Shown here one piece after another: positions 1 through 8,336 of a stretch of 8,336 nt of DNA. Source of the stretch: a virus. Lineage: Duplodnaviria; Heunggongvirae; Uroviricota; Caudoviricetes. The notes beneath the pieces were generated by a model. It was not told where the DNA came from and ran no database searches. It was given only the letters and a program-made list of their open reading frames with translations. The position numbers and the translations under genes are program-made. The DNA lies in IMG/VR virus record IMGVR_UViG_3300012983_000662. One strand, given 5' to 3'. How positions within the stretch are numbered: the first letter of the stretch is position 1; every line of letters starts with the position of its first letter.

Positions 1-66
1 AAAGTAAATACCGCCGGACCGGATGATGTTGATCCGCTGGCGGAGCTTTTAAAAGCGAGAGACTGA
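1..66 (+). CDS. 3' end of upstream gene, probably terminase small subunit (partial; C-terminal 21 codons plus stop)
   Basis: Frame 1 reads ...KVNTAGPDDVDPLAELLKARD then TGA at 64-66, overlapping the ATG at 66 of the large terminase (TGATG). Identity is inferred only from position immediately upstream of terL. Confidence 0.4.
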   Translation, partial: KVNTAGPDDVDPLAELLKARD

Positions 67-1823
67 TGGCAAAAGTGGCTGACGGGATCCGCTACGCCGA
101 ACGTGTTGTTGCAGGAGAAATTGTTGCTGGCGAATTTGTCCGCCTAGCCTGCCAGCGTTTTCTTGATGATCTGAAGTACGGCGAAGAGCGGGGGATTTAT
201 TTCAGTGAACCCCGTGCGCAGCACATCCTGAATTTCTACAAATTTGTGCCTCATGTGAAAGGGGCGCTGGCAGGCCAGCCCATTGAACTGATGGACTGGC
301 ATGTATTTATCCTCATTAATATTTTTGGTTTTGTCATTCCGCTGGTGAATGAAGAGACCGGGGAAGTTGTCATGCGCAGCGATGGCAGCGGACGTCCGGT
401 GATGGTGCGCCGGTTCCGGACGGCGTACAACGAAGTAGCCCGTAAAAACGCAAAATCAACTCTGTCATCGGGTATCGGCCTGTATATGACGGGGGCAGAT
501 GGTGAAGGCGGAGCTGAGGTGTATTCAGCCGCAACCACGCGTGACCAGGCCAGAATCGTGTTTGAAGACGCCAAAAATATGGTCAGAAAAGCCCGGTTGA
601 CACTCGGGCGGTTGTTTGATTTCAACAAGCTGGCGATTTACCAGGAGCAGAGCGCATCAAAATTTGAACCGCTTTCTTCGGATGCAAACAACCTGGATGG
701 TCTGAACATTCACTGCGCCATCATTGATGAGCTGCATGCACATAAAACCCGTGATGTGTGGGACGTTCTGGAAACGGCAACCGGTGCCCGTCTGCAGTCC
801 CTTTTATTTGGTATCACCACGGCAGGGTTTAACAAGGAAGGGATTTGTTACGAGCAGCGTGATTACGCCATCAAGGTATTGCGTGGCTATAACAGCGATG
901 TGGAGGGCGCTGTAAAAGACGACTCCTACTTTGCGATTATTTACACCCTCGATGAGGGAGATGATCCGTTTGATGAAACGGTCTGGCAGAAAGCGAATCC
1001 CGGCCTGGGCATTTGTAAACGCTGGGATGATCTGCGTCGTCTGGCGAAAAAAGCGAAAGAACAGGTCTCTGCGCGGGTGAATTTTTTTACCAAACACATG
1101 AATGTGTGGGTAACCGCAGAGTCTGCCTGGATGGACATGATTAAGTGGGAGAAGTGCGAATACATTGCCCCACGACATGAGCTGAAAACGTATCCCATGT
1201 GGGTCGGCGTTGACCTTGCTCATAAGATTGATATCTGTGCGGCGGCAAAACTCTGGCGAACGGATAACGGGCATGTTCATGCCGATTTTAAATTCTGGCT
1301 CCCGGAAGGACGGCTGGAACGATGCTCGCGGCAGCAGGCAGAACTTTACCGGAAGTGGGCGGAGATGGATAAGCTGATTCTGACGGATGGTGATGTTATC
1401 GATCATGCTCAGATAAAAAGTGACTTACTGGAATGGATTGGTGGTGAAAACCTCAGGGAACTGGGATTTGACCCGTGGAGCGCGATGCAGTTCAGCCTGG
1501 CACTGGCTGAAGAAGGGATACCGCTGGTGGAGGTTCCGCAGACGGTTCGCAATCTGTCAGAGGCCATGAAGGAAACGGAATCACTGGTCTATGCCGGGCG
1601 TTTCCATCACAGCAATCATCCGGTCATGAACTGGATGATGTCTAACGTTACGGTAAAACCGGACAAAAACGACAATATCTTCCCGAATAAATCCACGCCG
1701 GAAGCCAAAATCGACGGCCCTGTTGCGATGTTTACAGCAATGAGCCGGATGCTGGTCAATGGTGGTGAACCGGAGCCGGATCTGTCTGAACATCTGGTCA
1801 GCGTGGGCATCCGCTCGCTTTAA
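66..1823 (+). CDS. Terminase large subunit (ATPase plus nuclease domains), 585 aa
   Basis: Long ORF translationally coupled to the upstream gene. Walker-B-like hhhhDE motif ([11 protein letters not shown]), a candidate deviant Walker A about 95 residues upstream ([10 protein letters not shown]), and a C-terminal RNase-H-like nuclease signature ([11 protein letters not shown]). Sits immediately upstream of the portal gene. Family call is from motif recall, not a search. Confidence 0.9.
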
Positions 1824-1834
1824 CCGAGGTCATT

Positions 1835-2017
1835 ATGTTTCTGATAATTCTCGCGTCACTGGTGGGCGTGCTGGGTGCGCTTTTGCTGGCGTATGGTGCT
1901 TGGCTGATTTATCCCCCGGCGGGTTTTGTTGTTGCCGGGGTGCTGTGCCTGTTCTGGTCGTGGCTGGTGGCGCGATATCTCGACCGTACACAGCCGTCTG
2001 TCGGCGGAGGTAAATAG
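1835..2017 (+). CDS. Small hydrophobic membrane protein, 60 aa, two predicted transmembrane helices, function unknown
   Basis: GAGGT at 1826-1830, 4 nt before ATG 1835. Stop TAG 2015-2017 overlaps the portal GTG start at 2017 (TAGTG). CTG-rich codon usage like the flanking genes. Sequence [60 protein letters not shown] has two hydrophobic stretches and a short charged C-terminal tail. Confidence 0.6.
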
Positions 2018-3258
2018 TGTTCTTTTCGGGATTATTTCAACGAAAAAGTGACGCGCCGGTGACCACGCCAGCAGAGCTGGCGGATGCTATCGGGCTGTCA
2101 TATGACACCTATACCGGAAAGCAGATCAGCAGCCAGCGGGCCATGCGACTGACGGCGGTTTTTTCCTGCGTCAGGGTGCTGGCAGAGTCTGTCGGGATGT
2201 TGCCCTGCAATCTGTATCACCTGAACGGCAGCCTGAAACAGAGAGCCACCGACGAACGTCTGCATAAGCTGATCTCCACGCATCCCAATGGCTATATGAC
2301 GCCGCAGGAGTTCTGGGAGCTGGTGGTCACCTGTCTGTGCCTGAGGGGAAACTTTTACGCCTACAAAGTGAAAGCATTTGGCGAAGTGGCTGAATTGCTG
2401 CCCGTCGATCCCGGCTGTGTGGTACCGAAGCTTAACAGTAGCTGGGAACCGGTCTATCAGGTCACATTCCCGGATGGCTCCACGGATGTACTGAGCCAGG
2501 AGGATATCTGGCATGTGCGCACGCTGACGCTGGACGGACTGGTGGGGCTGAATCCCGTCGCCTATGCCCGCGAGGCAATATCGCTGGCGGCAGCGACCGA
2601 AGAGCACGGGGCCAGACTGTTCAGCAATGGTGCGGTGACGTCGGGTGTGTTGCGTACAGAGCAGACGCTGTCAGATCAGGCTTACGAGCGCCTGAAGAAA
2701 GATTTTGAGGAGCGTCACACCGGGCTTGGCAATGCTCACCGCCCGATGATCCTTGAGATGGGGCTGGACTGGAAGTCGATGGCGCTGAACGCCGAGGACA
2801 GCCAGTTCCTGGAAACCCGCAAGTTTCAGCTTGAAGAAATCTGTCGTCTGTTCCGGGTACCGTTGCACATGGTGCAGAACACCGATCGCGCCACCTTCAA
2901 CAATATCGAAGAACTGGGGCTCGGATTTATCAACTATTCACTGGTGCCGTATCTGACCCGCATCGAACAGCGGATCAACACCGGACTGGTACGAAAAAGT
3001 AAGCAGGGCGTTTATTACGCCAAATTTAACGCCGGGGCGTTACTGCGCGGGGATATGAAGTCCCGTTTTGAAGCCTACGCCACCGGGATTAACTGGGGAA
3101 TTTACTCTCCCAATGACTGCCGCGACCTGGAAGATATGAATCCGCGTCCCGGTGGGGATGTCTATCTCACACCAATGAACATGACCACGAAACCCTCCGA
3201 TGGCAGTAAAGCCGGTAAGCAGAAGGATAACGCCAATGCAGACGAAACAACGTCTTGA
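2017..3258 (+). CDS. Portal protein (HK97-family-like), 413 aa
   Basis: GTG start at 2017 with GGAGG at 2006-2010, 6 nt upstream. Size and position (after terL, before prohead protease) fit an HK97-type portal. N-terminus MFFSGLFQRK... is portal-like. No search was run. Confidence 0.9.
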   Translation: MFFSGLFQRKSDAPVTTPAELADAIGLSYDTYTGKQISSQRAMRLTAVFSCVRVLAESVGMLPCNLYHLNGSLKQRATDERLHKLISTHPNGYMTPQEFWELVVTCLCLRGNFYAYKVKAFGEVAELLPVDPGCVVPKLNSSWEPVYQVTFPDGSTDVLSQEDIWHVRTLTLDGLVGLNPVAYAREAISLAAATEEHGARLFSNGAVTSGVLRTEQTLSDQAYERLKKDFEERHTGLGNAHRPMILEMGLDWKSMALNAEDSQFLETRKFQLEEICRLFRVPLHMVQNTDRATFNNIEELGLGFINYSLVPYLTRIEQRINTGLVRKSKQGVYYAKFNAGALLRGDMKSRFEAYATGINWGIYSPNDCRDLEDMNPRPGGDVYLTPMNMTTKPSDGSKAGKQKDNANADETTS

Positions 3259-3886
3259 TGTACCGCTGAGTCTGAAATCTGTCAGTGACTCCGGTGAGTT
3301 TGAAGGGTATGGCTCCGTCTTTGGTGTAAAGGACAGCCACGATGATGTGGTGATGTCCGGGGCATTTGCTGCTTCCCTGCGGGCGTGGAGTGACAGAAAA
3401 GCGTTACCTGCGCTGCTCTGGCAGCACCGCATGGATGAGCCCATCGGTGTTTACACCGAAATGAAGGAAGACGATGTCGGGCTTTACGTCAGGGGGCGGC
3501 TGCTCATTGATGATGATCCCCTCGCAAAACGCGCACATGCACATATGAAGGCCGGTTCGTTAACCGGCCTTTCTATTGGGTACGTCCTGAAAGACTGGGA
3601 ATACGACCGGAGCAAAGAAGCCTTTCTGCTGAAAGAAATCGACCTCTGGGAAGTCAGTCTGGTGACGTTCCCGTCTAACGACGAGGCGCGGATCAGCGAC
3701 GTCAAGAACGCGCTGGCCCGCGGGGAAATCCCCGAACAGAAAAAAATCGAAAGAGTCCTGCGTGATGTTGGACTCTCCCGTACCCAGGCCAAAGCATTCA
3801 TGGCCGGGGGCTATGGCGCACTGTCCCTGCGCGACGCTGAGGATGTGGGCTCTGCACTGAATGCACTGAAAAATCTGAACTTCTAA
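3236..3886 (+). CDS. Prohead maturation protease (HK97 gp4-like, S78/U35-type)
   Basis: ATG 3236 preceded by GAAGGA at 3222-3227; it overlaps the portal 3' end by 23 nt. An in-frame ATG at 3200 (ORF track) has no Shine-Dalgarno motif. Motifs EFEGYGSVFGVKDSHDDVVMSGAF and LTGLSIGY resemble the conserved His and Ser regions of HK97-type prohead proteases. Located between portal and capsid genes. Confidence 0.85.
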   Translation: MQTKQRLDVPLSLKSVSDSGEFEGYGSVFGVKDSHDDVVMSGAFAASLRAWSDRKALPALLWQHRMDEPIGVYTEMKEDDVGLYVRGRLLIDDDPLAKRAHAHMKAGSLTGLSIGYVLKDWEYDRSKEAFLLKEIDLWEVSLVTFPSNDEARISDVKNALARGEIPEQKKIERVLRDVGLSRTQAKAFMAGGYGALSLRDAEDVGSALNALKNLNF

Positions 3887-3900
3887 TCAGGAGAAATACG

Positions 3901-5106
3901 ATGGCGGTAGATATTAAAGATGTCGAACAGGTCGCGCAGGAGCTGCAGCAGAAGTTTGACGACTTCAAAGCAAAGAACGACAGGCGCGTGGATGCGATTG
4001 AGCAGGAAAAAGGCAAACTTGCCGGGCAGGTGGAAACCCTGAACGGAAAACTCAGCGAGCTGGAAAATCTCAAAAGCGATCTTGAAAAAGAGCTGCTTGA
4101 GCTGAAACGTCCGGCAGGTGGTGTGCAAAATAAACTGGCCACTGAGCATAAAGAGGCTTTTGTGGATTTCCTGCGTAAAGGCCGTGAAGACGGTCTGCGC
4201 GATCTGGAGCGCAAGGCATTGCAGGTGGGCACCGATGAAGATGGAGGCTACGCCGTGCCGGAAGAACTGGATCGCAACATTCTCAACCTGCTGAAAGATG
4301 AAGTGGTGATGCGTCAGGAAGCCATGGTGATCACCGTTGGCGGTTCCGACTACAAAAAACTGGTGAATCTGGGCGGTACGGCTTCCGGATGGGTGGGGGA
4401 AACGGATACGCGATCCCAGACTGCTGCCTCAAAACTGGGACTGATTGAACCTTTCATGGGGGAAATCTACGGTAACCCGCAGGCCACCCAGAAAATGCTG
4501 GATGATGCCTTTTTCAACGTGGAGGCCTGGATCAACAGCGAGCTGGCAACCGAATTTGCCGAACAGGAAGAAATTGCCTTTACCACCGGCGATGGTACCA
4601 AGAAGCCGAAAGGGTTCCTGGCGTATGAGTCCACTGATGAAACCGACAAGGTCCGGGCGTTCGGCAAACTTCAGCATATTGTATCCGGCGAAGCGACGGC
4701 AGTGACCGCAGATGCCATTATCAAACTGATTTACACGCTGCGTAAGGCACACCGCACCGGCGCGAAGTTCATGATGAACAACAACAGCCTGTTTGCCATT
4801 CGTCTGCTGAAAGACACCGAGGGTAACTATCTGTGGCGTCCGGGGCTGGAGCTGGGACAGCCGTCCTCTCTGGCGGGTTACGGTATCGCTGAAAACGAAC
4901 AGATGCCGGATATTGCCGCTGATGCGAAAGCCATTGCATTTGGTAACTTCAAACGGGGTTACACCATCGTTGACCGTATCGGTACCCGCATTCTGCGTGA
5001 CCCGTACACCAATAAACCGTTTGTCGGTTTTTATACCACCAAGCGCACCGGCGGCATGCTGGTCGATTCGCAGGCCATCAAACTGCTGAAGATTGCAGCG
5101 GCGTAA
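3901..5106 (+). CDS. Major capsid protein, HK97-fold, with N-terminal coiled-coil delta (scaffolding) domain, 401 aa
   Basis: AGGAG at 3889-3893, 7 nt before ATG 3901. The first ~100 residues are rich in E/K/L heptad-like sequence (VEQVAQELQQKFDDFKAKNDRRVDAIEQEKGKLAGQVETLNGKLSELENLKSDLEKELLELK). No separate scaffold gene lies between protease and capsid. Size and synteny fit HK97-type capsid proteins. Confidence 0.9.
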   Translation: MAVDIKDVEQVAQELQQKFDDFKAKNDRRVDAIEQEKGKLAGQVETLNGKLSELENLKSDLEKELLELKRPAGGVQNKLATEHKEAFVDFLRKGREDGLRDLERKALQVGTDEDGGYAVPEELDRNILNLLKDEVVMRQEAMVITVGGSDYKKLVNLGGTASGWVGETDTRSQTAASKLGLIEPFMGEIYGNPQATQKMLDDAFFNVEAWINSELATEFAEQEEIAFTTGDGTKKPKGFLAYESTDETDKVRAFGKLQHIVSGEATAVTADAIIKLIYTLRKAHRTGAKFMMNNNSLFAIRLLKDTEGNYLWRPGLELGQPSSLAGYGIAENEQMPDIAADAKAIAFGNFKRGYTIVDRIGTRILRDPYTNKPFVGFYTTKRTGGMLVDSQAIKLLKIAAA

Positions 5107-5113
5107 TCATTCA

Positions 5114-5140
5114 GGGGGCGCAGAAGTGCGCCCCTGTTCT
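5114..5140 (+). terminator. GC-rich hairpin after the capsid gene (possible partial terminator or mRNA-stabilising stem-loop)
   Basis: 8-bp perfect stem GGGGCGCA (5115-5122) / TGCGCCCC (5127-5134) with loop GAAG, followed by TGTTCTG, which is only moderately U-rich. Confidence 0.4.
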
Positions 5141-5156
5141 GACAGGTGAAAGAATC

Positions 5157-5345
5157 ATGATCCTGAAACAAGATCTGAAATGGTCACCGGACGGTATGCG
5201 TGTTGAGATCATTCGGGCCGGTGAGTATGAAGATAAAGAATTACCCGAACGGGTACGCGAAATTGCCACTGCAGCTGGGATTGTCTCTGATAAGAGAACA
5301 CCTGTTGCGCGGGGGGCTGATAAGTCTAAAAAACAGCATTCATAG
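5157..5345 (+). CDS. Hypothetical small protein, 62 aa, basic C-terminus
   Basis: AGGTGA at 5144-5149, 7 nt before ATG 5157. Stop TAG 5343-5345 is 11 nt before the next start. Fills the gap between capsid and connector genes. I recognise no family. Confidence 0.45.
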   Translation: MILKQDLKWSPDGMRVEIIRAGEYEDKELPERVREIATAAGIVSDKRTPVARGADKSKKQHS

Positions 5346-5356
5346 AGGTTGCCCAA

Positions 5357-5662
5357 ATGATGCCCACTCTGGAAGAGCTTCGTGTTCAGTGCCGGATTGA
5401 TGATGACAATGAACAGGAGAATTCTCTTCTTATGATGTATCTGGCTGCTGCCAGGGAAGAGGCTGAAAAGTTTTTAAACCGGACGCTTTACGATGAAACT
5501 GTTTCTGAGCAGGATACGACCGGGCTTGTAATAACACCGCTGATAAAGCTGCGTCTTATGCAACTGGTTGGCTACTGGTACGAGAACAGGGAAATGCAGG
5601 ATGCAGTGCCTGATTTTTTCTATACCGGACTGCGGATGTATCGGTTTCATCCCGGAACATAG
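5357..5662 (+). CDS. Head-tail connector protein (phage gp6-like), 101 aa
   Basis: N-terminal pattern TLEELRVQCRIDDDNEQENSLLMMYLAAAREEAEKFLNRTL matches the signature of gp6-like connector / DNA-packaging proteins (LEE.K..LRID.D...L..L..AA). GAGG at 5345-5348 upstream. Position right after the capsid gene. Confidence 0.75.
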   Translation: MMPTLEELRVQCRIDDDNEQENSLLMMYLAAAREEAEKFLNRTLYDETVSEQDTTGLVITPLIKLRLMQLVGYWYENREMQDAVPDFFYTGLRMYRFHPGT

Positions 5663-5670
5663 GAGGATTC

Positions 5671-6009
5671 ATGCAGGCAGGAAGATTACGTGATCGTGTG
5701 GTTATTCTGAATGCCACCACCGTTCGGTCTCCGTCAGGGCACCCTGTGGAAACAATGACGGAGGGGGCAACCATATGGGCAGAAGTTAAGGGGATCAGTG
5801 GCAGGGAGAGAATATCCGGAGGCGCAGAAACTGCTCAGGCTACAGTGAGGGTCTGGATGAGATTCCGGCGAGATGTGACAGCAACTTCATGTCTGAAAGT
5901 GCTGACTGGTGCATTCAAAGGCGCGATTCTGAGTATAGACGGTCCGCCGATACCGGATGTTCGTGCCACCCGGCTTGAGATACTCTGTTCTCAGAAGGGG
6001 AATGTGTGA
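5671..6009 (+). CDS. Head-tail adaptor / head closure protein (Phage_H_T_join-like), 112 aa
   Basis: AGGAGG at 5661-5666 before ATG 5671. N-terminal MQAGRLRDRVVIL and internal TIWAEV...AQATVRVWMRFRRDV match the typical pattern of this family. Unusually rich in AGA/AGG/ATA codons. Confidence 0.7.
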   Translation: MQAGRLRDRVVILNATTVRSPSGHPVETMTEGATIWAEVKGISGRERISGGAETAQATVRVWMRFRRDVTATSCLKVLTGAFKGAILSIDGPPIPDVRATRLEILCSQKGNV

Positions 6010-6455
6010 TGGATTTCAGTCTTGATTTTTCAGGTCTGGCGGATATTGCACGGGATCTGGAGACGCTCAGCAGGGCAGAAAACAATAAGGTACTGCGCGA
6101 TGCCACCCGTGCCGGTGCTGAAGTTATGCGGGATGCAGTTGTTGAACGTGCGCCGGAGCGAACCGGGAAACTGAAGAAAAATGTGGTTGTTCTCACTCAG
6201 CCTTCAAAGCGTCGGGGGGAAATTATCTCGGGAGTCCACATTCGCGGACGAAATCTGCGAACCGGAAACAGTGATAACAGCATGAAAGCCAGCGATCCCC
6301 GAAATGCGTTTTACTGGCGCTTTGTCGAACCGGGAACGGTAAACATGCCTGCTCACCCGTTCATTCGTCCGGCGTTTGATACGACAGAGGAACTGGCGGC
6401 GCAGGTTGCCATACAGCGAATGAATCAGGCTATTGATGAGGTCTTAAGTAAATGA
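6009..6455 (+). CDS. HK97 gp10-like tail component / neck protein, about 148 aa
   Basis: ATG 6009 overlaps the upstream stop TGA 6007-6009 (TGATG), with AAGGGG at 5995-6000. The ORF track begins 3 nt earlier at GTG 6006. Motif FYWRFVEPGTVNMPAHPFIRPAFD resembles the conserved core of the HK97 gp10 family. Confidence 0.75.
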   Translation: MDFSLDFSGLADIARDLETLSRAENNKVLRDATRAGAEVMRDAVVERAPERTGKLKKNVVVLTQPSKRRGEIISGVHIRGRNLRTGNSDNSMKASDPRNAFYWRFVEPGTVNMPAHPFIRPAFDTTEELAAQVAIQRMNQAIDEVLSK

Positions 6456-6796
6456 GAGAGACCACACTGTATTCCCTGCTGTCTCAACTGGCCGGAGGAC
6501 AGGTTTATCCTTATGTGGTCCCGCTGACGGAGGGAAAGCCTGCGGTATCTCCGCCATGGCTGGTATTTTCTGTGGTCTCTGACACTGCGTCTGATGTGCT
6601 TGATGGTCAGGCTGAATCCAGAATTACCGTGCAGATCGATGTCTGGGCAACAGTACCTGATGACGCAGATGATATCCGTGAGCAGGCGCTTGATGCGGTA
6701 AGGCAACTGGCACCCTCCGTTATTTCTAAAACGCAGGGTTATGATCCTGATTCCCGTCTGAGCAGAGCCATGCTTGAATTTCAGGTAATAGCCTGA
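6452..6796 (+). CDS. Tail terminator / completion protein (gp11-like, DUF3168-type), 114 aa
   Basis: ATG 6452 overlaps the upstream stop TGA 6453-6455 (ATGA). N-terminal LYSLLSQLAGGQVYPYVVP pattern and the position between the gp10-like and major tail genes fit the family. Confidence 0.6.
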   Translation: MRETTLYSLLSQLAGGQVYPYVVPLTEGKPAVSPPWLVFSVVSDTASDVLDGQAESRITVQIDVWATVPDDADDIREQALDAVRQLAPSVISKTQGYDPDSRLSRAMLEFQVIA

Positions 6797-6816
6797 GGTC
6801 GTTAATGATTTTACCC

Positions 6817-6844
6817 ACCCGCCGCTGGCGGGTTTTTTTATTTT
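6817..6844 (+). terminator. Rho-independent terminator-like hairpin with long T-tract
   Basis: Stem CCCGCC (6818-6823) / GGCGGG (6827-6832) with a 3-nt loop, then TTTTTTTATTTT (6833-6844). The minus strand has no equivalent T-tract, so it is oriented with the operon. Confidence 0.65.
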
Positions 6845-6856
6845 CAGGAGACGAGT

Positions 6857-7561
6857 ATGTCCTCTAATTTTGAGCGTTCGCAACTGACGAAAATTATGAT
6901 TTCGTCTGCACCGGTAACAGCAGAAACCCTGGATTCTGCCAGCTTTCTTGGGCTGAGCTGTACAATCAAAGAAGTGCAGTTTACCGCAGGACAAAAGCAG
7001 GATATTGATGTCACCACGCTGTGTTCTGTTGAGCAGGAAAATATTAACGGTCTTGGTGCCGCGTCAGAGATTTCCATGTCAGGCAACTTTTACCTCAATG
7101 CTGCCCAGAACGCGTTGCGTAGTGCCTATGACAATGACACCACGTATGGCTTTAAAGTTATTTTTCCGTCAGGCAACGGATTTACCTTTATGGCAGAGGT
7201 GCGTCAGCATACCTGGTCTGCAGGAACCAATGGTGTTGTGGCTGCAACGTTTTCCCTGCGTCTGAAAGGTAAACCTGTGCTGACGACAGAGCCGCTAAAA
7301 GTGAAGGTCGATTTAAACAGCACGCTGCAGATTTCTGCCGGAGCGAAACTTGAAATGGCGGTTGAGGCTGCGGGTGGTGTGCCGCCTTATTCTTATGTCT
7401 GGAAGAAAGGTGGATCTCCTGTTTCCGGACAGACGGCGGCAACGTTCAGTAAGGCATCCGCAGTATCCGGTGATGCGGGTGCATATACCTGCGAGATTTC
7501 TGATTCAGCAAGCCCTGTTAACAAGGTGACCTCCACTTCCTGCACTGTTACCGTCAGTTAA
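6857..7561 (+). CDS. Major tail (tube) protein with C-terminal Ig-like domain, 234 aa
   Basis: AGGAG at 6846-6850, 6 nt before ATG 6857. Positioned between the tail terminator and the tail chaperone genes. The C-terminal ~90 residues (PPYSYVWKKGG...SGDAGAYTCEISD...CTVTVS) carry Ig-fold hallmarks: a conserved Trp and a D.G.Y.C F-strand motif. Confidence 0.7.
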   Translation: MSSNFERSQLTKIMISSAPVTAETLDSASFLGLSCTIKEVQFTAGQKQDIDVTTLCSVEQENINGLGAASEISMSGNFYLNAAQNALRSAYDNDTTYGFKVIFPSGNGFTFMAEVRQHTWSAGTNGVVAATFSLRLKGKPVLTTEPLKVKVDLNSTLQISAGAKLEMAVEAAGGVPPYSYVWKKGGSPVSGQTAATFSKASAVSGDAGAYTCEISDSASPVNKVTSTSCTVTVS

Positions 7562-7575
7562 TGAGGATAGATGTG

Positions 7576-7947
7576 ATGACTAAAAATATCCGTAATCTGG
7601 CACTGGCAACGATGTCGGGGTTTCGCCATAAAACCGTTGATGTGCCTGAATGGGAGGGAGCAACGGTTGTGTTACGGGAACCTTCTGCAGAAGCCTGGTT
7701 GCGCTGGCAGGAGATCGTTAAAGCAAAAGATGATGAGACACCGTTATCCGTTGCGGAGCGCGCCCGCCGAAATCTGGAGGCAGATGTTGAACTGTTCATT
7801 GATGTTCTGTGTGATACCGGACTGCAACCTGTATTTTCAGAGGATGATCGTGAACAGGTGATTGCCGTGTATGGCCCGGTGCATGCGCGGCTTCTTCGGC
7901 AGTCTCTGGAACTGATCAGTGATGCCGGCGAGGTTAAAAAAAAGTAG
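7576..7947 (+). CDS. Tail assembly chaperone (lambda gpG functional analogue), zero-frame product
   Basis: GAGGA at 7563-7567, 8 nt before ATG 7576. In-frame alternative starts exist at ATG 7561 (overlapping the major tail stop, TAATG) and GTG 7573. Acidic protein ending ...AGEVKKK and terminating inside a slippery A-run. Located directly upstream of a -1 frame ORF and the probable tape-measure gene. Confidence 0.75.
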   Translation: MTKNIRNLALATMSGFRHKTVDVPEWEGATVVLREPSAEAWLRWQEIVKAKDDETPLSVAERARRNLEADVELFIDVLCDTGLQPVFSEDDREQVIAVYGPVHARLLRQSLELISDAGEVKKK

Positions 7948-8249
7948 CGCTTCCGGGGATGCGTTTTCTGATGATGCTGGCGCTCAGGATGGGGCGCACA
8001 TTGTCAGAGTTACGCCGGGAAATGTCCGCATCAGAAATCATGATGTGGGCAGAATTTGACAGGTTCAGCCCGCTGGGGGACGAACGGGCTGATATCCGGG
8101 CTGCCCAGATTGTTTCAGCTATTTACGGTGCGCAGGGGGTTAAAGTACTACTGAATGATGCGCTTCTTCAGTGGGAACAAGAGCAGACAGAAGGCGTCTC
8201 AGATCCATTTGCCGGACTGGAAAACGCGCTTTTAATAGTGTCTCAGTGA
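7576..8249 (+). CDS. Tail assembly chaperone frameshift fusion (lambda gpGT analogue), produced by -1 ribosomal slip at 7938-7944
   Basis: The ORF 7959-8249 is in the -1 frame relative to the G-like ORF and is open back through the slip site (codons after the slip read GTA GCG CTT CCG GGG ATG...). Its own ATG at 7959 has no convincing Shine-Dalgarno motif. Predicted junction: ...GEVKKK-VALPGMRFLMML... Confidence 0.65.
7938..7944 (+). promoter_or_regulatory. Programmed -1 ribosomal frameshift slippery heptamer A_AAA_AAG
   Basis: Sequence GTTAAAAAAAAGTAG: zero-frame codons AAA AAG at 7939-7944 are followed by stop TAG 7945-7947. The heptamer fits the X_XXY_YYZ rule and is identical to the E. 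coli dnaX slip site. Confidence 0.7.
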
Positions 8250-8257
8250 GTCAACAT

Positions 8258-8279
8258 AACCGCTTCGGCGGTTTTTTTT
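8258..8279 (+). terminator. Terminator-like hairpin with UUCG tetraloop and T8 tract
   Basis: AACCGC-TTCG-GCGGTT (stem 8258-8263 / 8268-8273, loop TTCG 8264-8267) followed by eight T (8272-8279), 9 nt after the stop of the frameshift ORF. Confidence 0.55.
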
Positions 8280-8295
8280 CGTCCGGAGAATGAGT

Positions 8296-8336
8296 GTGGC
8301 GACATTACGTGAACTGATTATTAAAATCTCGGCAAA
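8296..8336 (+). CDS. 5' end of next gene, probably tail tape-measure protein (partial)
   Basis: GGAGA at 8285-8289, 6 nt before GTG 8296, with the frame open to the window end (VATLRELIIKISA...). Identity is inferred only from position after the G/GT pair. The in-frame ATG at 8290 abuts the Shine-Dalgarno motif and is unlikely to be the start. Confidence 0.45.
   Translation, partial: MATLRELIIKISA

Follow-up and report, generated by a model that had tools for sequence, protein, structure and literature searches.

Why does codon usage change in the middle of a phage structural operon? We addressed this question for a stretch of tailed-phage DNA of 8,336 nt (the window), in which a sequence-only reading had placed a recombination junction, between head and tail modules of different ancestry, in the interval 5107–5356. 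The answer that we favour, with a probability of roughly 0.87, is that the step in GC content at third codon positions (GC3) is the trace of a historical recombination seam and not a functional element. A junction of differing ancestry does fall in that interval: the match to phage SfIV ends at 5231, and the GC3 of the parental lineages fits each flank.

Gene content and the codon-usage step

The long ORFs of the window are all on the plus strand and make a canonical HK97-like structural operon. The gene order TerL, portal, S78 protease, major capsid protein (MCP), adaptor, head closure and neck is that of an HK97-like head assembly module, and the Pfam matches of the genes of this module all exceed the curated cut-offs. 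The genes are as follows.

66–1823, plus strand: large terminase TerL (PF03354 / PF20441, TerL_ATPase and TerL_nuclease)
1835–2017, plus strand: YmfR-like membrane ORF (phrog_502)
2017–3258, plus strand: portal (PF04860, Phage_portal)
3200–3886, plus strand: S78 prohead protease (PF04586, Peptidase_S78)
3901–5106, plus strand: MCP, HK97-fold (PF05065, Phage_capsid)
5157–5345, plus strand: 62-aa ORF, the small gene (phrog_1020)
5357–5662, plus strand: gp6-like head-tail adaptor Ad1 (PF05135, phrog_40)
5671–6009, plus strand: head closure Hc1 (PF05521, phrog_25)
6006–6455, plus strand: gp10-like neck Ne1 (PF04883)
6452–6796, plus strand: tail completion (PF11367)
6857–7561, plus strand: major tail protein, MTP (phrog_158)
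7561–7947 and 7959–8249, plus strand: tail chaperones G and T (phrog_344; phrog_337 / phrog_14766)

Third positions had been described as GC-rich up to 5106 and AT-richer afterwards, and the counts bear this out: GC3 is 0.612 in 66–5106 and 0.484 in 5157–8249 (chi-square 41, p 1.5e-10). Every in-frame third position was then taken as a binary series, a change point was placed by maximum likelihood and 500 codon permutations served for comparison. The single change point is at 5168 (2-LLR support interval 5061–5249), inside 5107–5356, with GC3 of 0.613 before it and 0.483 after it. Its LLR of 21.4 compares with a 99th percentile of 7.5 and a maximum of 10.3 among the permutations (n=500); the step that a GC3 profile had been expected to reveal is therefore significant. 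A secondary change point, at 1472 in the 3′ part of terL, has an LLR of 6.3, above the 95th and below the 99th percentile of the permutations.

By gene, GC3 is 0.564–0.566 in TerL, 0.617 in the small YmfR-like ORF, 0.673 in the portal, 0.610 in the protease and 0.616 in the MCP gene; downstream it is 0.403 in 5157–5345 and then, in gene order, 0.495, 0.491, 0.497, 0.465, 0.479, 0.477 and 0.542. The five genes up to 5106 thus span 0.57–0.67 and the eight later genes 0.40–0.54. By segment, the values are 0.635 for 1806–5233, 0.45 for 5231–5659 and 0.488 for the block from about 6000 to 8336. TerL is intermediate, differing both from the head block (p 0.005) and from the region 5234 onward (p 0.003). 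Single codon families go the same way: in summed per-gene counts, CTG makes 118 of 170 Leu codons upstream and 47 of 85 downstream, AGR 13 of 99 and 16 of 71 Arg codons, and ATA 5 of 78 and 11 of 48 Ile codons.

The downstream genes had also been said to be richer in codons that are rare in E. coli, and this was upheld in part. The counts given for 5671–6009 are exact (AGA/AGG in 5 of 12 Arg codons, ATA in 5 of 8 Ile codons), and the four rarest E. coli codons (AGA, AGG, ATA and CTA) are enriched downstream overall, with 29 of 999 codons versus 19 of 1671 upstream (Fisher p 0.0013). The enrichment is not module-wide, however, as 10 of these 29 codons lie in one gene, Hc1 (5671–6009); the rare-codon share is 8.9% in Hc1, and 1.9% in the block 6006–8336 versus 1.2% in the head block. 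The Hc1 gene of the siphovirus Evi is likewise rich in rare codons (7.1%, with a codon adaptation index, CAI, of 0.27), so that the rare-codon richness of Hc1 is a trait inherited with that gene and not a property of the tail module. The GC3 shift is module-wide; the rare-codon excess is gene-specific.

CAI, computed with 29 E. coli K-12 ribosomal-protein, elongation-factor and rpoA genes as reference, did not give the step by module that had been looked for. It varies gene by gene, with no step at the seam, and was dropped as a module marker. The MCP has the sole high value in the window (0.54); the portal is at 0.37, the protease at 0.38 and the tail genes at 0.36–0.43 (major tail protein 0.43, tail completion 0.39), and CAI is lowest in four small low-copy genes, Ad1 (0.29), Hc1 (0.24), Ne1 (0.31) and chaperone T (0.27). 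Because rare-codon and CAI signals follow individual genes and not modules, they can mislead.

These values bear directly on an explanation by gene expression, in which abundant head proteins would favour G/C-ending codons and low-copy connector and tail proteins would tolerate rare ones, all genes being of the same ancestry. The CAI of the MCP, the highest in the window, is high also in SfIV (0.57) and in Klebsiella phage ST101-KPC2phi6.3 (0.58; hereafter KPC2phi6.3), the low-copy Ad1, Hc1, Ne1 and chaperone T genes are at the bottom of the scale (0.24–0.31), and the rare-codon excess is concentrated in Hc1 in the window and in Evi alike, all as this explanation would have it. Yet the portal and protease genes, with GC3 of 0.61–0.67, have CAI values (0.37–0.38) not above those of the major tail protein or tail completion genes. 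Furthermore, head and tail share GC3 in Evi (∼0.50) and in SfIV, described as a myovirus (PMC3851460; ∼0.63). In Evi the portal, protease and MCP genes have GC3 of 0.49–0.53 and the connector and tail genes 0.45–0.55; in SfIV the range is 0.60–0.69 for head genes, 0.64–0.67 for the terminase and mostly 0.54–0.65 for the contractile-tail genes. The uniformity of each phage across head and tail argues that the step reflects ancestry rather than expression, and since a fall in GC3 from head to tail is absent from both unrecombined lineages, the step is best seen as an effect of the junction. With parental lineages this uniform, expression bias is largely refuted as the source of the GC3 step, and we consider it unlikely.

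The seam at 5231 and the small gene around it

Compared with SfIV, the window has one mismatch in 5150–5230 and then 12 in the next 20 nt (5231–5249). BLAST alignments end at 5233 for SfIV, 5224 for ST64B and 5230 for KPC2phi6.3. Two features of the interval need to be located.

5115–5134, plus strand: G+C-rich hairpin after the capsid gene, 8-bp stem (5115–5122/5127–5134), loop GAAG
5209–5231, no strand: the seam, bounded by a lone mismatch at 5208 and the onset of dense mismatches at 5231

Position 5231 corresponds to codon 25/26 of the 62-aa gene, 75 nt inside it, and falls within both the interval 5107–5356 and the GC3 support interval 5061–5249. The shift thus lies where it had been proposed to lie, whether judged by composition (5168) or by similarity (5231); the two breakpoints agree to ∼60 nt, a coincidence that also speaks against expression bias. 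The locus has the properties of a mosaic junction: similarity to SfIV drops abruptly from high to low at a defined point, each flank occurs with other partners in other genomes, and the compositional break matches the parental lineages (0.635 versus 0.45–0.49). A targeted, non-exhaustive literature search returned no paper describing this seam or its GC3 contrast.

The 62-aa ORF, which had been taken for an orphan, is a member of phrog_1020, matched over its full length with an E-value of 5e-35 (and with no Pfam match), and the seam lies inside it. SfIV-type prophages (66 aa), the prophage of E. coli strain 142 (62 aa) and KPC2phi6.3 (67 aa) all have a homologue downstream of the capsid gene. 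In the protein, conservation decreases from the near-invariant N-terminal ∼24 residues through residues 25–41, where it is moderate, to a Lys-rich C-terminus that varies; substitutions are biased to synonymous ones (pN/pS 0.43–0.56). In the gene, the 5′ ∼75 nt are conserved in all lineages having it; homology extends into the 3′ part, which has diverged. None of the relatives compared was an unrecombined recipient, in which this small gene would stand beside another head allele.

The hairpin that precedes the small gene is stable (MFE −21.7 kcal/mol for 5104–5150, z −4.0; 0 of 200 shuffles as stable), and its pair 5122/5127, A-U in the window and G-C in SfIV, is a compensatory change. The sequence 3′ of it, CUGUUCUG, is a poor U-tract. 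As a Rho-independent terminator the element therefore has the stable stem-loop and lacks the U-run directly 3′, and a plus-strand terminator scan did not call the hairpin, its T-run being too weak. The corresponding place in Evi, after the MCP gene, is occupied by a canonical terminator with UUUUUUU.

Could the hairpin and small ORF be a moron-like cassette, the dip in composition coming from its insertion and not from a module junction? No gene in the region has a lower GC3 than the ORF (0.40, with 0.32 in strain 142 and 0.39 in KPC2phi6.3), and it is missing between the MCP and Ad1 genes in Evi and in E. coli CM2010-0578/1; absence from relatives together with deviating composition is what one expects of a moron. 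One also expects a promoter and terminator of its own, but a scan of 4900–6100 found no sigma-70-like promoter site and no plus-strand terminator after 5345, and we reject the moron reading on this ground. Other observations point the same way. The hairpin is upstream of the ORF, as part of the 3′ end of the capsid gene, and has an analogue in the Evi terminator; the low GC3 continues for 3 kb past the ORF; and the ORF is SfIV-like in its 5′ 75 nt and not at its 3′ end, so that the seam cuts through it instead of flanking it. The gene is, moreover, conserved in three phage lineages despite its moron-like absence elsewhere. Insertion of such a cassette is scarcely credible as the cause of the step.

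IMG/VR was searched with a conserved 5′ motif of the small gene (5175), and at least 120 loci were found. Among the matches listed, all SfIV-type loci lose similarity to the window 55–60 nt past the motif, which is equivalent to 5229–5234. The downstream types among these matches are those of SfIV, the window, strain 142 and KPC2phi6.3, and one further variant; E. coli-type sequences among them have two states right of 5231. Since these are the only two right-hand states among the E. coli-type sequences listed, repeated use of 5231 is unsupported, and we saw no sign among the matches listed that it is a recurrent hotspot. The pattern fits a single historical event, passed on by descent.

Relatives of the two flanks and further seams

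Escherichia phages phi467 and vB_EcoM-606R7 are collinear with the entire window at 97–98% identity, every seam included; they are of the same phage type as the window, with point differences only. Phage phi467 is a Stx2f-converting phage (PMC7366253). The name of the other phage begins with ‘vB_EcoM’ despite the siphovirus-type tail encoded at the locus. Identity to E. coli chromosomal prophages reaches 99.8% in the stretches queried (1500–2300 and 4800–6100).

Apart from these two phages, the relatives found in separate BLAST searches form two groups: myoviruses of the SfIV, SfII, SfI and ST64B type match 1806–5233 only, and Evi with about nine records of related, prophage-derived vB_EcoS siphoviruses matches 1–1765 and 5660–8336. 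Searching the two halves separately, as had been advised, thus does lead to different lineages (SfIV-type and Evi-type), but there are more than two modules.

SfIV, SfII and SfI share with the window the stretch from the YmfR-like gene through codon 25 of the small gene, at 95–97% nucleotide identity, and ST64B shares the same head stretch at ∼92–95%. Unlike the window, SfIV-type phages have another terminase allele (577 aa, without nucleotide match to 66–1765) and, past 5231, an adaptor with 34% identity to that of the window as well as the sheath and tube genes of a contractile tail. Evi has the TerS/TerL of the window (96.5%), its neck, tail and chaperone genes (about 6000–8336, 96–100%) and the same gene order. 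It differs in having its own portal, protease, MCP and Ad1 genes, without nucleotide match, a true U-tract terminator and no small gene after the MCP gene, and a uniform GC3 of ∼0.50. These comparisons divide the window into six segments.

1–1765, plus strand: Evi-type segment, end of the small terminase region and most of terL (96.5% to Evi 1589–3353; GC3 0.564)
1766–1952, plus strand: transitional segment, last ∼19 TerL codons and 5′ part of the YmfR-like ORF (shared with CM2010-0578/1)
1953–5230, plus strand: SfIV/ST64B-type head block, portal to the first 25 small-gene codons (GC3 ∼0.63)
5231–5659, plus strand: third-ancestry segment, 3′ part of the small gene and Ad1 (GC3 0.45)
5660–6000, plus strand: Hc1 segment, Evi-related at ∼85% (sliding identity; PF05521, phrog_25)
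6001–8336, plus strand: Evi-type neck and tail block, Ne1 to the chaperones (96–100% sliding identity to Evi; GC3 0.49)

The first segment (1–1765) has no nucleotide match to SfIV. At three-way informative sites the window follows CM2010-0578/1 to ∼1858 and SfIV from ∼1953. The head block is 96.8% identical to SfIV 2275–5700, with sliding identity of 0.92–1.00. Nucleotide matches to 5231–5659 are confined to phi467, 606R7 and 249 E. coli genomes, and identity to strain 142 is 94% there; the Ad1 protein is 48–50% identical to that of Evi, 45–48% to that of KPC2phi6.3 and 34–35% to that of SfIV (tblastn and alignment), and one-genome-per-species bacterial contigs yielded no confirmed locus with an Ad1 relative. 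In Hc1 the sliding identity to Evi is 0.79–0.88 (pS 0.42), jumping to 0.96–1.00 at about 6000. There are, then, further seams beside 5231: at about 1765–1950, at 5660 and at about 6000. The Ad1/Hc1 boundary (5660) is a breakpoint in three independent comparisons, namely the window with Evi, the window with strain 142, and two IMG/VR loci (L048 and L049) with KPC2phi6.3; both loci follow KPC2phi6.3 through Ad1 and then have an unrelated Hc1-neck-tail module.

Three relatives combine the segments in other ways. In the prophage of E. coli strain 142, TerS, TerL and the head genes are SfIV-type (97.5%) up to the position that corresponds to 5233; next come a small gene and an Ad1 gene of the window type (94%) and then a siphovirus tail that is more divergent (75–90% to the window). 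The prophage has the same GC3 step as the window. The two are contiguous at 94–100% over about 1950–5660, and identity falls at 5660. This contiguity implies both that Ad1 travels with the head block and that the seam at 5231 was there before the two sub-lineages (the window/phi467 type and the strain 142 type) split; it is old, and both have it. E. coli CM2010-0578/1 has an Evi-type terminase, tail and Ad1, no small gene and a head block with 82% identity to SfIV, and its left seam is identical to that of the window nucleotide for nucleotide. Klebsiella phage KPC2phi6.3 has a strain-142-like architecture, an SfIV-family head with this tail type, at nucleotide identities of 75% (head) and 68% (tail) and with little GC3 contrast; synonymous divergence is saturated in both MCP and MTP (pS ∼0.7).

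The sequence-only reading had put the terminase in the head module and started the tail module at 5357, which amounts to a head (66–5106) and a tail (5357 onward) joined at a single recent junction in 5107–5356. In its favour, the strongest signal is a single change point inside this interval, and the relatives of the two halves are partly different. The ancestry of the terminase, though, is that of the tail (Evi-type, 96.5%) and not that of the head block: the Evi-type match covers 1–1765 as well as 5660–8336, which places the terminase with the tail lineage, and the secondary GC3 change point (1472, LLR 6.3) is in the 3′ part of terL. Nor does the tail module start at 5357, as Ad1 (5357–5662) is not Evi-like and goes with the head block, to which it is linked in strain 142; Hc1 is merely ∼85% Evi-like. 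Finally, the seam is neither recent nor private, being present in 248 genomes and two sub-lineages. A two-module structure with one recent junction is thus very unlikely.

The population figures come from 5426 complete E. coli genomes queried with 4800–6100, 5234–5662 and 1500–2300. Some part of 4800–6100 is matched in 1608 genomes, and 248 (∼4.6%) carry all of it across the seam. The stretch 5234–5662 is carried by 249 genomes, the one extra being an IS100-interrupted copy. An apparent extra breakpoint at 5432, in E. coli K99B, was discarded as an IS100 insertion in the adaptor gene. About 557 genomes have the right arm only (861–1301 of the 4800–6100 query) at about 87% (best-match class 80–90%), and most of the remaining matching genomes have the left arm only, stopping at 431–435 of the query. 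Both left-arm-only loci that we inspected carry sheath and tube genes and belong to SfIV-like myovirus prophages. The left seam (1500–2300) is intact in 289 genomes. Constant co-occurrence of the two halves with the same junction, which would have told against recombination, is not what we find: the flanks separate in hundreds of E. coli genomes, each being found without the other in such genomes and in many phage records.

Proposed history and its meaning

The seam shares several features with the mosaic junctions of lambdoid and HK97-like phages: an abrupt loss of similarity, flanks found with other partners, a break in composition, a position near a gene or functional boundary and a conserved structural gene order. 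Mosaicism of temperate tailed phages is summarised for Stx phages in PMC7366253, a passage of which cites the Hendrix/Hatfull view. What is specific here is that the seam is 75 nt inside a small conserved gene and not in an intergenic linker, that a myovirus-shared head block adjoins a siphovirus connector, and that the GC3 contrast is unusually clear (0.63 versus 0.48). The window is an ordinary, clean case of known phage mosaicism, with nothing different in kind.

The exchange itself may have proceeded as follows. At ∼5231 an SfIV-type head block (∼97%, GC3 ∼0.63), which spans the C-terminal tail of TerL to the first 25 small-gene codons, hairpin included, meets siphovirus connector and tail DNA (GC3 ∼0.45–0.50). 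Most likely the crossover came about by homologous recombination, within the conserved 5′ stretch of the small gene; this stretch would be the last that myovirus- and siphovirus-type genomes have in common before adaptor and tail diverge. Later, the head-plus-adaptor block (∼1950–5660) would have been placed in an Evi-like backbone (1–1765 and ∼6000–8336), a combination that would have made the extra seams at the 3′ end of terL, at the Ad1/Hc1 boundary and at ∼6000. We infer this direction and order of exchanges from compositional homogeneity and from the nested levels of identity.

The seam may, on the other hand, not date from the first joining of this head and this tail. The combination in KPC2phi6.3 and the saturated synonymous divergence of MCP and MTP suggest that the pairing may be ancient. 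The pairing of the head family with the siphovirus tail family is probably old, with a high-GC3 head allele circulating between SfIV-type and siphovirus prophages, and 5231 appears to be the edge of what these two kinds of prophage share. If so, the seam would be the boundary left behind when the head genes were replaced, at a later time, by alleles from the abundant pool of SfIV-type prophages.

A more tentative idea, which we think possible but would not bet on, is that the seams are non-random and bracket the proteins that must fit the portal, a ‘portal-compatible cassette’. The unit would consist of the TerL tail, portal, protease, MCP, small protein and adaptor, and its recurrent right seam would be Ad1/Hc1 rather than MCP/Ad1. 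As the left seam is inside terL, the last ∼19 TerL residues travel with the portal. The C-terminus of lambda gpA is a prohead/portal-binding domain according to a passage of PMC4856287 (citing Frackman 1984 and Yeo & Feiss 1995), and the C-terminal tail of TerL may, by analogy, correspond to it here. If the idea is true, 5231 would be a rare pairing of an SfIV-type portal with a foreign adaptor, 34% identical to its own, and phrog_1020 could be a head/portal accessory whose N-terminus doubles as a homology patch.

As a trace of a historical seam, the codon-usage step makes the window a clean, quantifiable example of a temperate-phage structural operon built from blocks of differing ancestry, in which the GC3 change point alone placed the recombination seam within ∼60 nt. 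The prophage family concerned is present in ∼1 in 20 complete E. coli genomes and includes a Stx2f-converting phage. The tail morphology of its members is not inferable from their head genes, and for classification of these prophages terminase, head and tail are three separate markers.

Boundary between the adaptor and head-closure genes

The boundary between the gp6-like head-tail adaptor gene (Ad1, 5357-5662) and the head-closure gene (Hc1, 5671-6009), at window 5660, where the Ad1 stop meets the Hc1 ribosome-binding site (TAGGAGGA), is, as judged from sequence comparison, a recurrent breakpoint. We observed a breakpoint at Ad1|Hc1 both in the comparison of the window with phage Evi and in that with the prophage of E. 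coli strain 142, which represents a second sub-lineage. When two IMG/VR loci (L048 and L049) are compared with the Klebsiella phage KPC2phi6.3, a change to an unrelated Hc1-neck-tail module is found at the same boundary.

The adaptor gene is also the site of an insertion in the E. coli K99B prophage (L008), which apart from this element is identical to the window: IS100 (istA/istB; L008 4114-5915) lies within the gene at the equivalent of window ~5432 and presumably inactivates it.

Tail proteins

The two tail-chaperone ORFs, both covered by phrog_14766 (224 aa), are as follows:
7561-7947, + strand, first tail-chaperone ORF
7959-8249, + strand, second tail-chaperone ORF

At window 7936-7947, eight As followed by a G stand directly 5′ of the TAG stop of the first of these ORFs. 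The slippery heptamer A_AAA_AAG is located at 7937-7943, and from it the −1 frame stays open into the second ORF; the site has the appearance of a −1 programmed frameshift of the G/GT kind, as is canonical for the tail chaperones of siphoviruses.

The gene upstream encodes the major tail protein (6857-7561), named in RefSeq as an immunoglobulin domain-containing protein; its C-terminal half matches Hoc-like/Ig-like decoration families. At 7255-7354, identity to the strain 142 prophage is as low as 0.64; this dip suggests that a surface domain is evolving fast locally or has been exchanged.

Of the two phage records nearest to the window, one, ON470580.1 (vB_EcoM-606R7), which matches it over its whole length, has a myovirus-style name (EcoM). 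Its locus nevertheless specifies a siphovirus-type tail: there are genes for a major tail protein of 234 aa, for G/T chaperones and for a tape-measure protein, but none for a sheath. The name may derive from the SfIV-like head genes.

The region from terL to portal

A small hydrophobic ORF (1835-2017; phrog_502) is located between terL and portal. Its counterpart in SfIV-type prophages is named YmfR, and the stretch of E. coli K-12 strains that matches window 1500-2300 likewise covers genes annotated as ymfR, portal and terminase.

Window ~1806-2147 and 4801-5224 are matched by two short GenBank records, OR844966.1 and OR844959.1, whose label (‘Enterococcus phage Efm 3-10’) assigns them to a phage of Enterococcus faecium. 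Their identity to the ST64B-type head genes of enterobacterial phages is 92-95%. Contamination or mislabelling is the probable origin of these entries.

The left mosaic seam (window 1728-1952) falls within the 3′ end of terL: mismatches to Evi increase from ~1728, and the Evi-like match stops at 1765. The lambda terminase C-terminal tail is described as portal-binding (PMC4856287). In the window, the final ~19 TerL codons, identical in a second type of hybrid prophage (E. coli CM2010-0578/1), are of the SfIV/P27 family, so the terminase C-terminal tail travels together with the portal.
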